Assembly (NCBI GenBank): GCA_964500775.1 | Contig: CAZCQG010000005.1 | Span: forward strand, 12,853-74,917 | Origin: an uncultured Campylobacterales bacterium | GTDB lineage: Bacteria > Campylobacterota > Campylobacteria > Campylobacterales > CAZCQG01 | Length of the DNA: 62,065 bases | Direction: 5' to 3' | Shown: positions 9,005 through 34,015 of the stretch, in pieces | How the letters are laid out: each line of letters starts with the position of its first letter | Numbering within the stretch: the first letter of the stretch is position 1 | The notes under the pieces: generated by a model | The model's database searches: none | Told to the model about the DNA's origin: nothing | What the model saw: only the letters and a program-made list of their open reading frames with translations | Program-made: the position numbers and the translations under genes

Positions 9005-10279
9005 TCAAATTACCAATAGTGCGATGTTTCTTTTGTTTTGTTTATCAAAATCCTCAATGCACGCGCCTATCTCCCCCGTAACTTTTGCGGTATGCTCTAA
9101 AAGTGTTTTTAGGTTTAAAAAAAGGTGTGCGATGTCCTCGCCCCTCTGCCCCAAGAGAGCTGCCTCTATCTGCCCGTAAACCTCTATATAGTCAAGGTAA
9201 ACAAACGAGCGCTCAAATTCGTGTAAAATAAACCCGATGTCACGCGCAATCCCGTTAAAACTAGCGAGGATTCCCTTGCTTATACTTGAATACTTTTCAA
9301 TCGCCTCCTCTAGTACCGCCAAAAGAGGTTGGTCTGCCGTCTCATTTAATGTCTCATCTTCTTGTAGCGTATTGAGGTGTTTGTTGCCCATAGTGCTTTG
9401 GAGTATTACCGCGACGATAGAGAGTATCAGCTTATCAATATCCGAAGTGGCGTTTTCAAACTTCAAATCCAATTTTTTTACCAAGTCGGCATTTGAAGCC
9501 GAAACCTCGCCTATCTCCCCTGCTAATACCGAAAATACATCCCTCGAATTCTCTATTTTTTGCGATTTTACCGAAGTATTTAAGGCAAGAAACAATATCT
9601 CTTTCGATATTGAAACGATAGAGCGAGAACTTTTGCCGAGTGTCTCTTTGTAAAGCAAATAATTTTTCAGCGTTTCAAATGAGGAAAAGAAATTTTCTTC
9701 CGTGACACGCATTTTATGAAATAGTTTTTCCGTATCATTTTTTCCGCTCCCGCTTCGTACGGATGAGCGATGTACCGACTGAAACTCCTCCAATAAAACA
9801 TTGGTCATAAACTCATCATAATCCTTAATCCCGAAGCCTCGCAGGCTATCGACTATAAAATCTAACGATGCCTCCACCCCTTGCTCTTTTTCAATCTCCA
9901 AAGCGGATTTATATAAATCTTCGGCGATTTTTTGGAAGTGTGTTTGAGGTTTTATACGTATCGACAAATAGCACTCTTGCAAAGGAAACACGAATGCTAG
10001 TACCCAATAGTACCTGCCGCTTTTGGAGCGATTTTTTACGTATGCGGCTATGGGCTTATCGTTTTGGATATAGTCCCATAAAAGTTTGAAAACCGCTTTA
10101 GGCATATCTCTGTGCCTGATAATGTTGTGGGGGGCACCGACTAATTCCTCTTTATCATACCCGCTGATGCGCACAAATACGTCATTGCCGTCTATGATCG
10201 TACCTGCTTTATCCGTATACGAAAAAAATAGCTCATCTTCCCCGAAAAGTTCCTCTTCTTCCAAATAAATATCTTCCAA
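9005..10279 (-). CDS. Soluble Aer-like PAS-domain chemoreceptor with divergent signalling domain
   Basis: N-terminal SYTDKAGTII..NDVFVRISGY..EELVGAPHNIIRHRDMPK.VF..LW (Aer-type FAD PAS); C-terminal helical region with FLALNT..FSVLAGEI, only loosely like an MCP tip; TTG start. Confidence 0.75.
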   Translation of the reverse strand: MEDIYLEEEELFGEDELFFSYTDKAGTIIDGNDVFVRISGYDKEELVGAPHNIIRHRDMPKAVFKLLWDYIQNDKPIAAYVKNRSKSGRYYWVLAFVFPLQECYLSIRIKPQTHFQKIAEDLYKSALEIEKEQGVEASLDFIVDSLRGFGIKDYDEFMTNVLLEEFQSVHRSSVRSGSGKNDTEKLFHKMRVTEENFFSSFETLKNYLLYKETLGKSSRSIVSISKEILFLALNTSVKSQKIENSRDVFSVLAGEIGEVSASNADLVKKLDLKFENATSDIDKLILSIVAVILQSTMGNKHLNTLQEDETLNETADQPLLAVLEEAIEKYSSISKGILASFNGIARDIGFILHEFERSFVYLDYIEVYGQIEAALLGQRGEDIAHLFLNLKTLLEHTAKVTGEIGACIEDFDKQNKRNIALLVI

Positions 10280-10310
10280 ACTTTTCCGTCGCCTTGTTTT
10301 GTTAATTTTA

Positions 10311-11210
10311 TTATGACATTTTATAACATTTTAGTAATTTCTCCAAGACAAAAACACTGATACTGTTTCCTGATAGTTTCCATTTTTGTTTGAGCGGAAT
10401 CTCATCAGGAAAAGAGAATGCTTTATTAAATCCCAACATACGCACTATCTCTTCGGGCGAAAAGCGGCGCACTCGCCCTTCGTCTTGCAGGAAAGCCCCT
10501 GAATGCATATATGACTTGTAGTATCCCGAACAAAAGCACGTCGTATATGTCTCTCGCTCTGCGGCATCCAAGATTCGCATCCCGCTTCGGTATTTTCGTA
10601 ACACCGATTCATCGACATAGAGCGCTTCTCCATAACGATCCAAAGCATCCTTATCGATGAAATCTTCTAAAACGCGACTATAAGATTCTAACCGCGGGGG
10701 TTGCAAAGGGTATTTAGAGGCGAGTAAATAGTAGCGCTCCCGTCTGCTCGGAATCCCAAACGTAGTGGGACACAAGAGATGCTCTTGAAAAACATATCTC
10801 CGTTTTTCAAGCATTTTCAAAAATACTTCCCGAGCGTTAGAATCTGCAAATCCTTTGACGTTTTCTAATCCGATATGGTCGGGGAAATCGTCTGAATCTA
10901 AAGATTCCAAAACGGTGATGATTTGAAGCAAAGAGTTTGCCCTTTGATCTCCCAAATCTTTGCGATTTCCTTTTTCGCTATAAGGCTGACACGGCGGGGA
11001 GAGCCACAGGAAATCCACGTGTTTGCCGCTAAAAAAACTTGTGTTAAATTTTTCGAGGTTATATCTGATGCAGTTGTGATTCGGGAAGTTGTGCTTATAT
11101 GTCGCGATTGCATTTGGGTTTTGTTCAAGTGCGGTGATGCGGCACTCTGCGATATTTGCAAGAGCGTGTGCGAATCCACCTATGCCGCTGTATAGCTCTA
11201 GTGCGTACAT
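10311..11210 (-). CDS. C5 cytosine methyltransferase, Dnmt2/TRDMT1-like
   Basis: LELYSGIGG (motif I), SPPCQP (IV), ENVKGF (VI), GIPSRRERYY (VIII), CFCSGY resembling the Dnmt2 CFTxxY motif, RRFSPEEIVRMLGF and LSGNS (IX/X). Confidence 0.85.
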   Translation of the reverse strand: MYALELYSGIGGFAHALANIAECRITALEQNPNAIATYKHNFPNHNCIRYNLEKFNTSFFSGKHVDFLWLSPPCQPYSEKGNRKDLGDQRANSLLQIITVLESLDSDDFPDHIGLENVKGFADSNAREVFLKMLEKRRYVFQEHLLCPTTFGIPSRRERYYLLASKYPLQPPRLESYSRVLEDFIDKDALDRYGEALYVDESVLRKYRSGMRILDAAERETYTTCFCSGYYKSYMHSGAFLQDEGRVRRFSPEEIVRMLGFNKAFSFPDEIPLKQKWKLSGNSISVFVLEKLLKCYKMS

Positions 11211-11274
11211 AAAAAGAATTTAATCAGAAGGAACTTTCGTATAAAATTTTAAGGAAAGAGGGGGAGGAGAGGGC

Positions 11275-11613
<339 letters not shown>

Positions 11614-11623
11614 CTATAATCTC

Positions 11624-12889
11624 CTACTTCTTATTTGAAAATTCAGGATAAGCTTCAAGACCCGTTTCGTGTAGATCAAGACCGTCGTATTCTTCTTGCT
11701 CGCTTACTCTGATACCCATTGTGACTTTAAGAATATACCATACAATGAATGAAGAAACAAAGACAAAAACACCGACGGCGATAATTCCTTTGATTTGCGA
11801 AAGCAAACTTACGTCAGGATTAAAGATACCTACAGCTAGCGTACCCCAAATACCTGCAACCAAGTGAACCGACAATGCACCGACAGGATCATCGATTTTG
11901 AGTTTGTCAAAGAACGGAACGGCGAGCACGATAAGAATACCTGCAACTACCGCATCTATAGCAGCTACGCCCATACCGAGATCAGGACCCGCAGTTACCG
12001 CTACTAGACCTGCCAGAGCACCGTTTAGCACCATTGTGAGGTCGACTTTTTTGTATATGAGCTGCGTAAGCACCGCTGCGGTTATCGCACCGACTGCCGC
12101 TGCCATATTTGTAGCCGCAACAACCGCCGAAAACGCCGTCGCATCGTCTCTGCTTCCAAGTGCAAGCTGTGAACCGCCATTGAATCCAAACCATCCGAGC
12201 CATAGTATAAACGTCCCTAGTGTAGCTAAAGGTAAGTTTGATCCGGGGATTGGTTTTACTTTACCATCAGGTCCGTATTTTCCTTTTCTAGCACCCAAAA
12301 GAAGCACGCCGGCTAATGCCGCCCATCCGCCTACGGAGTGAACTATAGTAGATCCTGCAAAATCGCTAAAACCTTCCATAAAACCGCCTAGCTCGCTACC
12401 GCCCCAGCTCCAGTGACCTTGGATAGGATAAATGATACCCGAAAGTACAACGGTAAAAATCAAGAACGGCCACATTTTCATTCTCTCTGCCACCGTACCC
12501 GAAATAATCGAAGCCGCAGTCGCTACGAAAACCACTTGAAAGAAAAAGTCGGACATTTTACTATAAGACGCGCCATCATCTGTAGCCTGCGCTAAGATGC
12601 CGATACTTCCCATAAAAGAGCCGCCTTCACCATACATAAGGTTATAGCCCACTACAAAATACATTACGCATGAAATAGCGTATAGCAAAATGTTTTTGCT
12701 AAGAATTACTGCGTTGTTTTTCGTCCTAGTGAGACCCGATTCTAGCATCGCAAAGCCTGCCGCCATCCACATAACCAGTGCACCCATCATCACGAATAAA
12801 AACGTGTCAAGGATGTACTTCACATCGGTAAAATTACCGAGTATAACACTTCCGTCCTCTGCTAAAAGCTGGATTGATGAAACATCCAT
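11624..12889 (-). CDS. amtB: Ammonium transporter
   Basis: DFAGSTIVHSVGG and DDPVGALSVH twin-His motifs, WFGFNGGS; RBS AAGGAG upstream. Confidence 0.96.
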   Translation of the reverse strand: MDVSSIQLLAEDGSVILGNFTDVKYILDTFLFVMMGALVMWMAAGFAMLESGLTRTKNNAVILSKNILLYAISCVMYFVVGYNLMYGEGGSFMGSIGILAQATDDGASYSKMSDFFFQVVFVATAASIISGTVAERMKMWPFLIFTVVLSGIIYPIQGHWSWGGSELGGFMEGFSDFAGSTIVHSVGGWAALAGVLLLGARKGKYGPDGKVKPIPGSNLPLATLGTFILWLGWFGFNGGSQLALGSRDDATAFSAVVAATNMAAAVGAITAAVLTQLIYKKVDLTMVLNGALAGLVAVTAGPDLGMGVAAIDAVVAGILIVLAVPFFDKLKIDDPVGALSVHLVAGIWGTLAVGIFNPDVSLLSQIKGIIAVGVFVFVSSFIVWYILKVTMGIRVSEQEEYDGLDLHETGLEAYPEFSNKK

Positions 12890-13061: not shown

Positions 13062-13149
13062 CGGGAGATGGCTGAGCGGTCGAAAGCGGCGGTCTTGAAA
13101 ACCGTTGATGGGCAACTATCCTGGGGTTCGAATCCCTATCTCCCGGCCA
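13062..13149 (+). tRNA. tRNA-Ser (anticodon TGA)
   Basis: Acceptor stem CGGGAGA/TCTCCCG, anticodon loop CT-TGA-AA, long variable arm, GGTTCGAATCC T-arm, encoded CCA. Confidence 0.97.
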
Positions 13150-32600: not shown

Positions 32601-34015
32601 CCTTCGATCTCGACGACGGAGACATTGGCGGCTATATCGAGAATCTCTCCGCTCTTTGTTTTGTGTCTCGTCTCAAACCTATCCCATCCCTTGTGGAGGA
32701 TGTTTTTTTGCCTCCGCACTATCTCCTCTTCGTTTTCGACTATATCTATGTCTTTGATGTGGAGCGAGAGGAGTTCTTTCATGTCATACCCATACATTAT
32801 GCTCGCCCTTGGATTCGCATCGACTATTTTGCCGCTACTCGGCTCGACTAGCAATATAGCGTCGAGCGAAGCGTTAAAGAGGGTAGAGAATTTCGCTTCG
32901 GTCTTTTTTGCCTCGTAACGCAAATTCTCATACGCCCGCTCTTTGTTGCCTATTTTATTACGCGCATATAGCACTAGCGCAAAAAACAAAACCGAAGCTA
33001 CAAGTGCGAAAGTGATGAGTTCAATCCCATACTCTTTCCACGCATCAAACTCTTGATTGCGTATCACGGCATCTTTATAATAACTCGCGTCTATTCCAAA
33101 TCGCTTTGCGATCGCAGCGTCAAAATAGAGTTGCATCGTGGGAATCACGGCGGGAAATCTACCGTGTTTGTGATAATACGTTGCGGCATTAAGGACGTTT
33201 TTGCCTATCGTCAAACCATCCGACATATATCCGCCGACTATCCCTGCATCCGCGAAGGTAGAGTAAAACGCATAGATGGGAGCATTTGAGACGCTTGCTA
33301 TCTCTTTGAGTATCGCTTTTGGGGAGGCTTTGTATCCCTCTTTGTCTTGAAAAAGCAAGGTATAAAATACAATATCATTTTTTCCCGATTCGGAGACTTT
33401 TTGTTTGTATTCCGCCATAGAAAGCCCCGTGAGATTCTTGGGAGTGATGCCGTATTTCTGCACCAAAATTCTCCCGATGATCTCTCTTTGCTCCATAGGG
33501 AGCGCCCGTTTGTCGTGGATGACATAGACGTTTCTAGGCGAGGGGGTTTGCTCTAGGGCAATGGCTATGGTTTTTTCTATCGCCACGCTATCGTTATGGG
33601 TGATGATGTAGCGATTGTCCCTATCTGCGCTTTTTGGGATCATATCGTAGTAAGAGATCGTGGGGTGCGATGAGCCTAGGAGGGTTTCGTATCTACGAAT
33701 AAAATCGGAGGCGAAATCGCCGTGCGTAATAATCCCCGCAAACTCCAAATCGTGGTATTTTTTTTGAATATACTCGACAATCTCGCTATCTTCTAGCGGA
33801 TGCCCTACTCTATGGATGTCGAAAAATTCATAAAAAAGCTCAATATCTCCGCGACTTTTCGCGCTCTGCTCTAGCCCGTCTATAAAGATTTTCGTCCAAG
33901 GGAGGTCGCTATTATAGGAGAGTAGCACCAAATAACGCTCTTTTTCGAGTGCTTGAAGGAGTGTGGGCACGAACAATGCTATCAAGAGCAAGCACATCGA
34001 GAAAAGGCGTTTCAT
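29648..34015 (-). CDS. Multi-PAS hybrid sensor kinase (periplasmic sensor, 4 PAS, HisKA, HATPase, REC, Hpt)
   Basis: Four PAS repeats, [44 protein letters not shown]. Confidence 0.93.

Follow-up and report, generated by a model that had tools for sequence, protein, structure and literature searches.

Dnmt2 is the most conserved of the eukaryotic 'DNA methyltransferases' and is in fact a tRNA methylase, the origin of which is debated. The eukaryotic enzymes prefer tRNA-Asp, and in some species they are stimulated by queuosine at position 34. Bacterial homologues have been described in the literature as 'very few' (Geobacter, Holophaga), and according to the published view Geobacter obtained its Dnmt2 from eukaryotes. 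The characterised enzyme of Geobacter sulfurreducens, GsDnmt2 (GSU0227), prefers tRNA-Glu, which lacks the variable-loop GG that acts as an anti-determinant (PMC4041430). Here we analysed a 62,065-nt stretch (hereafter the window) of contig CAZCQG010000005.1 from an uncultured Campylobacterales bacterium (assembly GCA_964500775.1) and found that a minus-strand gene within it, the query gene, encodes a genuine bacterial member of the Dnmt2/TRDMT1 family. This family assignment is well supported, and the product is one enzyme of a known family, within a previously unreported Campylobacterota subclade, rather than the 'uncharacterised system' that the initial annotation of this DNA had suggested.

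The gene is an intact open reading frame (ORF) of 299 codons with an ATG start and zero internal stops, and its translation contains all the strings that the initial annotation had quoted for cytosine-5 (C5) methyltransferase motifs with Dnmt2-type details: ALELYSGIGG, YKHNFP, SPPCQP, ENVKGF, LLCPTTFGIPSRRERYY, CFCSGYYKSY, FSPEEI, LGF, FSFP and KQKWKLSGNS. The protein matched the Pfam family DNA_methylase (PF00145) with an E value of 2e-38 over residues 3-294, well outside the range of chance resemblance, and the NCBIfam dcm superfamily model TIGR00675 with 113 bits, slightly above the cut-off of 100.65. The five top sequence matches among structures in the Protein Data Bank (PDB) were five distinct Dnmt2 sequences in a phmmer search, namely those of Spodoptera frugiperda (4H0N, 2.3e-45), human (1G55, 3.9e-45, and 9HGM), Schizosaccharomyces pombe (Pmt1, 6FDF) and Entamoeba histolytica (Ehmeth, 3QV2); the E values of the Dnmt2 chains ran from 2e-45 to 3e-23, as against about 1e-13 for M.HhaI. 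When 5.8 billion proteins were ranked against the query, the first about 60 were prokaryotic proteins of ~300 residues, with identities that started at 55% and continued from 47% downwards. Animal tRNA (cytosine38-C5)-methyltransferases came next, at about 1e-43, and no restriction-modification (R-M) methylase ranked near the latter in this search. An AlphaFold2 model built from 59 homologues had a pLDDT of 96.3 and a pTM of 0.93 and was very confident across the recognition domain too. In a Foldseek comparison of this model with the PDB, ranks 1-9 were all Dnmt2 structures (E values of 1.5e-28 to 3.6e-25; best TM-score 0.90, to 3QV2), and M.HhaI appeared from rank 10 (5e-21).

Phylogenetic analysis gave the same placement. 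The trees were quick or FastTree searches, and the named eukaryotes in them were all animals. The first was rooted with eight ordinary C5-methylases from this genome, relatives and other bacteria; a scan of named genomes with the query returned ordinary C5-methylases only (Hyunsoonleella, Staphylococcus; 24-29% identity), and these served as outgroups. The query fell inside a Dnmt2 clade that was split from the ordinary C5-methylases with a support of 100, and within this clade the animal enzymes formed one group (support 99), with the prokaryote-type proteins on the other side. The prokaryote-type clade of the query also held proteins of Geobacter pickeringii, Lujinxingia and Myxococcota. The G. 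pickeringii orthologue (P0174), which was found by profile search and stands in here for the characterised G. sulfurreducens enzyme, shares a 35-row clade with the query (support 92) and is 39% identical to it over the full length (E = 7e-81). The second tree comprised 163 rows, sampled evenly as representatives at 50% identity. In this tree, 131 rows, characterised by a short recognition domain, formed a prokaryote-type clade (support 97) that included the query, Geobacter, Lujinxingia and Myxococcota, and its sister was a 32-row clade (support 81) that contained all named animal Dnmt2 proteins. The position of the prokaryote-type clade beside the animal Dnmt2 clade, and not inside it, sits poorly with a eukaryote-to-Geobacter transfer, with the named eukaryotes being animals only. 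Sequence matches to the PDB, homologue ranking, fold comparison and trees all agree with the earlier proposal that the protein belongs to the Dnmt2 family rather than to the R-M or Dcm methylases.

The C5-methylase motifs I, IV, VI, VIII and X are all present in the query in canonical order (Table 1). The protein keeps every family-invariant residue in two alignments, A1 (22 sequences, 36 invariant columns) and A2 (59 sequences, 29 invariant columns), and its predicted catalytic residues are intact. The Tyr-for-Phe replacement seen in motif I is typical of DNMT2, and the Gln of motif VIII is replaced by Asn in most DNMT2 proteins and by Ser in G. sulfurreducens (PMC10653749); the query reads S155-R-R-E-R, with a non-Gln first position occupied by Ser as in G. 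sulfurreducens. The inactive control mutant of GsDnmt2 is C74A, which has the same residue number as Cys74 of the query (PMC4041430).

Table 1. Features of the query gene, its flanking genes and the per-run contigs that cross its junctions, in window coordinates.
Feature	Position	Strand	Evidence or remark
Dnmt2/TRDMT1-family C5-methyltransferase gene	10311..11210	-	ORF, PF00145, PDB matches, AlphaFold2 model, Foldseek, trees
Motif I, S-adenosyl-methionine (SAM)-binding loop LELYSGIGG, residues 4-12	11175..11201	-	Tyr at the DNA-methylase Phe position
Motif IV, SPPCQP, residues 71-76, predicted catalytic nucleophile Cys74	10983..11000	-	invariant columns in alignments A1 and A2
Motif VI, ENVKGF, residues 116-121, predicted catalytic Glu116	10848..10865	-	E116, N117 and V118 invariant
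Motif VIII, GIPSRRERYY, residues 152-161	10728..10757	-	Arg157 and Arg159 invariant; Ser155 at the DNA-methylase Gln position
Recognition-domain core, CFCSGYYKSY, residues 225-234	10509..10538	-	Dnmt2 'CFT' motif with Thr227->Cys and consensus Gly231->Tyr
Motif X, GNS, residues 281-283	10362..10370	-	G281 and N282 invariant; S283 nearly invariant
P-II (glnB-like) gene	11275..11613	-	PF00543, E = 1e-33; 64 nt upstream, same strand
Ammonium transporter gene amtB	11624..12889	-	PF00909, E = 7e-101
PAS-domain protein gene	9005..10279	-	PAS_3, E = 1.4e-11; MCPsignal 24.6 bits, below the cut-off of 34.6; 31 nt downstream
glnB-side contig, run X1	10460..11661		
glnB-side contig, run X2	10750..12793		
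glnB-side contig, run X3	10334..11247		
PAS-side contig, run X1	10190..10431		
PAS-side contig, run X2	10043..10754		

Among the described enzymes, GsDnmt2 is close in kind to the query. Both are bacterial proteins of about 300 residues with a short recognition domain that lacks the eukaryotic insertions. In both, the catalytic Cys is residue 74, the motifs come in the same order and Ser replaces the Gln of motif VIII, and both fall in the prokaryote-type clade. They differ in subclade, with the query in a Campylobacterota group and Geobacter in a Desulfobacterota-like group, and in the recognition core, which reads CFCSGYYKS in the query and CFTSGYGRS in Geobacter. The eukaryotic Dnmt2 structures listed above, the best PDB matches of the query in both sequence and structure, are 25-32% identical to it with TM-scores of 0.82-0.90, and they share the motif I Tyr, PPCQP, ENV, the R.R of motif VIII, a CFT-type core and GNS. 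The eukaryotic enzymes form the sister clade of the prokaryote type and carry insertions in the variable region, so that the distance from PPCQP to GNS has a median of 276 residues, compared with 207 in the prokaryote type. The Type II R-M and orphan C5-methylases (M.HhaI, M.HaeIII, Dcm) have in common with the query a Rossmann-type catalytic domain and the ten-motif architecture, and the query model superposes on the M.HhaI fold with a TM-score of 0.79. However, they are only 20-28% identical to the query, fall in a separate clade (support 100), carry a TL recognition domain where the query has a CFT-like motif, and are as a rule accompanied by a nuclease or Vsr gene, which is missing beside the query.

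The strict CFT tripeptide is absent from the query. As the initial annotation had pointed out, the motif reads CFC, with Cys225 and Phe226 retained and Cys at position 227 in place of Thr; it is followed by SGYYKSY, and the family consensus is CFTS.YG(K/R)S. The nearest relative, P0002, has CFGSGYYKSY. Together with P0002, the query belongs to a subclade of 11 rows (support 99); the nine remaining rows, like Geobacter, have CFTS.Y(G/S)(K/R)S. CFT was present in all 13 animal sequences aligned and in 57 of the 78 aligned prokaryote-type sequences (query included), the remainder reading CFA (8), TFT (7), TVT (3), CFC (2) and CFG (1), so that about a quarter of the sampled prokaryote-type members deviate at this motif. 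Two outgroup methylases read TLT in the same column. Recognised members of the family deviate as well, Holophaga having CFI and Dictyostelium CVT (PMC4041430, PMC10653749), and in human DNMT2 mutation of the CFT Cys reduces activity (PMC5699548). Judging from these alignments, the CFC variant is real, lineage-specific, not unique and compatible with membership of the Dnmt2 family.

By analogy with its relatives, we consider it quite probable that the query methylates C38 of tRNA to give m5C38. As a stand-alone chromosomal enzyme, it would use SAM as the methyl donor and modify carbon 5 of cytosine 38 in the tRNA anticodon loop. In the chemistry shared by Dnmt2 and DNA methylases, Cys74 of PPCQP would attack C6 of the flipped cytosine, while Glu116 of ENV together with Arg157 and Arg159 of motif VIII would activate and hold the base; the short recognition domain with its CFT-like motif would take the place of the DNA-reading TL motif. 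That the substrate is RNA and not DNA, that position 38 is modified, that tRNA-Glu is chosen and that translation may be affected are all predictions by this analogy.

To which tRNAs the activity might be directed can be narrowed from the genome. Only 3 of the 34 tRNA genes found in it have C38: tRNA-Glu(UUC), at 32930-33005 of contig C4, with the loop CUUUCAC; tRNA-Asp(GUC), at 32748-32824 of the same contig, with CUGUCAC; and tRNA-Ser(GGA), at 8033-8120 of contig C61, with CUGGAAC. The last is excluded because its loop does not fit CUxxCAC, which is the loop of the classical Dnmt2 substrates (PMC10653749). The variable loop of tRNA-Glu is CUAC, with A46 and without GG, and that of tRNA-Asp is AGGUC, which contains the GG anti-determinant; the host of GsDnmt2 likewise has a tRNA-Glu without the variable-loop GG and a tRNA-Asp with it. 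The GG rule therefore favours tRNA-Glu(UUC) and disfavours tRNA-Asp(GUC) in this genome, and, given that the enzyme methylates C38 of tRNA, tRNA-Glu(UUC) is somewhat better than an even bet as the main target. The genome also encodes Tgt, so that tRNA-Asp probably carries queuosine at position 34; as queuosine stimulates some eukaryotic Dnmt2 enzymes, tRNA-Asp may be a target too. We propose that the gene be annotated as a putative tRNA (cytosine38-C5)-methyltransferase, and not as a DNA methylase or a part of an R-M system.

The host genome is 2.18 Mb in size and 99% complete, and it is the sole representative of its family in the genome set compared. The named relatives of its HisD protein are all from Campylobacterota (Nitratiruptor, Sulfurovum, Arcobacter and Campylobacterales genomes), with identities of no more than 67%, and a Campylo_MOMP porin gene lies 3 kb from the query gene, both in agreement with the earlier attribution to a Campylobacterota genome. 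These markers make the host an uncultured, deep-branching representative of this phylum. The placement of the gene was supported by contigs from four sludge-metagenome runs, assembled independently, which crossed both gene junctions without differences (Table 1), indicating that it is not an assembly chimera. Run X2 contained a strain variant with substitutions at window positions 10371, 10384 and 10407, near the 3' end of the gene, which correspond to S280S, K276R and P268P; the within-population variants are thus two synonymous changes and one conservative change. Farther upstream, a tRNA-Ser(UGA) gene (window 13062-13149, plus strand) lies beyond amtB on the opposite strand, and the contigs of runs X2 and X4 part from the window right after 13149, the 3' end of this tRNA gene, which suggests that the sequence beyond this point is strain-variable and possibly marks an integration hotspot.

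Within about 5 kb on each side of the query gene we identified hisD and genes for a CNNM/CBS protein, the PAS protein, P-II, AmtB, tRNA-Ser, a ComEA-like HhH protein, Campylo_MOMP and an ABC permease. A search of this interval for nuclease or Vsr domains gave none, and the genes of five relatives (P0002, P0009, P0015, P0022 and the G240 homologue) were likewise found to have no such neighbour; the gene can indeed be described as solitary, without an adjacent endonuclease or Vsr. None of the neighbours tested with PADLOC matched a defence model, giving no evidence of a defence island, and the query itself produced generic methylase matches only, the best being to a full-length Type II methylase model (8.6e-36). 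The other C5-methylase of this genome, which lies outside the window (contig C49, 52-1619; locus L001), is an ordinary one with 319 bits to PF00145. The preceding ORF, the end of which overlaps it by 4 nt, encodes a Shedu SduA_C nuclease domain (PF14082, E = 1.4e-31), and the two look like a methylase-plus-nuclease pair near the contig end; chorismate synthase comes next.

No terminator-like site was found between the P-II gene, the query gene and the PAS gene, and in a scan for the sigma-70 consensus promoter-like sites were no commoner than in shuffled sequence (14 versus 10.7 ± 3.2). The downstream gene had been called Aer-like; it has a clear N-terminal PAS domain, and its match to the MCP-signalling domain is below threshold. 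This gene starts with TTG and may encode a divergent soluble PAS-MCP-like sensor. In the relatives, the surroundings of the gene were different at every locus examined: it lies after recA-eno-AMIN and before a Na/Ca exchanger gene in P0002, between rho and dnaX in P0009 and P0015, after a GGDEF gene in P0022, and between a GGDEF gene and pstBAC in the case of the G240 homologue. Therefore, no functional link to amtB/P-II or to nitrogen regulation is indicated. A 128-residue unannotated ORF near the Dnmt2 genes of four relatives was also considered as a conserved partner and was rejected, as BLAST found these ORFs to be unrelated except for one orthologue pair (L014/L017).

The initial annotation had viewed the gene as horizontally acquired. 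As a recent event this is not borne out: the GC content of the gene (0.434) matches that of the genome (0.433), its third-codon-position GC (GC3, 0.447) is similar to that of its neighbours, and the subclade is a Campylobacterota one. All five subclade members with an assignable host belong to this phylum, namely the query, G240 (by taxonomy), P0002, P0009 and P0015. The RecA, enolase and CysS proteins of the P0002 contig are 94%, 83% and 81% identical to those of this genome, and Rho of the P0009 and P0015 contigs is 82-83% identical to its counterpart here. A survey of 60 genomes of the same order gave no orthologue, and only 2 of the 401 genomes sampled in the phylum carry the gene (the query genome and one other). 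The chromosomal sites of the query and P0002 genes differ, with an aroK-like gene following AMIN here where the genome of P0002 has Dnmt2. The data are consistent either with a gene that has long resided in Campylobacterota under fairly weak constraint and has undergone relocation and loss, or with transfer inside the phylum; they give no indication of a recent import. Bacterial members had further been said to be rare, which holds per genome in this phylum; the family is rare overall as well, yet far larger than Geobacter and a few others: of 1.84 billion cluster representatives at 50% identity, 292 reached an E value of 1e-30 or below, and the top 150 of these were mostly of the prokaryote type, which comprises more than 100 clusters at 50% identity. 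In the paper collection searched, we found none that ties Dnmt2 to Campylobacterota. Among the relatives examined, a single fusion was seen, P0010 from a Syntrophales metagenome-assembled genome, a 491-residue protein in which a prokaryote-type Dnmt2 is joined to a C-terminal domain of ~180 residues (PF12694 in the precomputed annotation).

Several points weigh against a tRNA C38 methyltransferase with tRNA-Glu as its target. The function of the query and its subclade is predicted by analogy with relatives only, and the four runs in which the stretch occurs are DNA metagenomes of sludge, none of them RNA, which bears on the expression of the gene. Bacteria without Dnmt2 commonly have C38 in these two tRNAs, tRNA-Glu and tRNA-Asp, so that the candidate substrates are necessary and non-discriminating. 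The GG rule was established with GsDnmt2 and human DNMT2 only, and eukaryotic Dnmt2 enzymes favoured the Geobacter tRNA-Asp even with its GG (PMC4041430). An orphan DNA cytosine-5 methyltransferase, acting on a genomic DNA motif in an epigenetic or anti-restriction role and not on tRNA, would account for the Pfam, TIGR00675 and PADLOC matches described above, and the query has all motifs required for DNA methylase chemistry. According to one paper, DNMT2 of bacteria works as a DNA methyltransferase (PMC5456315), and Dnmt2 is able to methylate DNA placed in a tRNA scaffold (PMC5699543). We nevertheless regard this explanation as unlikely, given that the Dnmt2 matches outrank those to DNA methylases by some 30 orders of magnitude in the sequence search and some 7 in the structural one, that a CFT-like motif stands at the position of the DNA-methylase TL, and that no R-M partner or Vsr was found at the six loci examined.

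The protein may, on the other hand, belong to the Dnmt2 family with a shifted or weakened function, in which the CFC/GYY core sends it to a different RNA or position; alternatively, the gene may be on its way to being lost. The recognition core is changed at two usually conserved positions, 227 and 231, in the query and P0002, the only two of the 11 subclade members without CFT and the subsequent Gly/Ser, and specificity or activity may therefore differ. In addition, the query and P0002 are only 55.6% identical, the lowest value among the 15 proteins compared between the two contigs (56-94%), which fits weak constraint, and the difference in chromosomal site and the lowered activity on mutation of the human CFT Cys point in the same direction. 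Such a shift appears improbable to us, to much the same degree as a DNA substrate, because the reading frame is intact with all the invariant residues of A1 and A2 kept, the model is very confident with the recognition domain included, recognised members and about a quarter of the prokaryote-type sample tolerate variation at CFT, and the population variants are silent or conservative. It is less probable still that the gene is tied to nitrogen sensing, with co-transcription with amtB and P-II and a tRNA or nucleic-acid methylation that responds to ammonium: the genes lie on one strand, 64 and 31 nt apart, and lack an intervening terminator-like site, but the neighbourhood is not kept in the relatives. 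The tRNA C38 methyltransferase reading thus remains the one that we favour.

These results describe a Campylobacterota lineage with its own Dnmt2 subclade, and a prokaryote type of Dnmt2 whose clusters form a well-supported clade beside the eukaryotic enzymes and not within them. We put forward, as a speculation with rather long odds, that the query and its sister P0002 may represent a small Campylobacterales Dnmt2 lineage in which the remodelled core CF[C/G]SGYYKSY has retargeted the enzyme, be it to another tRNA, to another position, to some other RNA or to DNA, and that, more broadly, the prokaryote-type Dnmt2 may be an old and diversified group of bacterial enzymes that modify tRNA and are either the sisters or the ancestors of eukaryotic Dnmt2. 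If true, an old bacterial family of this kind would contradict the published acquisition of the Geobacter gene from eukaryotes. The findings also raise the questions of whether a preference for tRNA-Glu is general among bacterial Dnmt2 enzymes and how much of the CFT motif is required for the choice of substrate. Their main value is that they provide a handle on an under-appreciated bacterial branch of the Dnmt2 family and on the role of the CFT motif.

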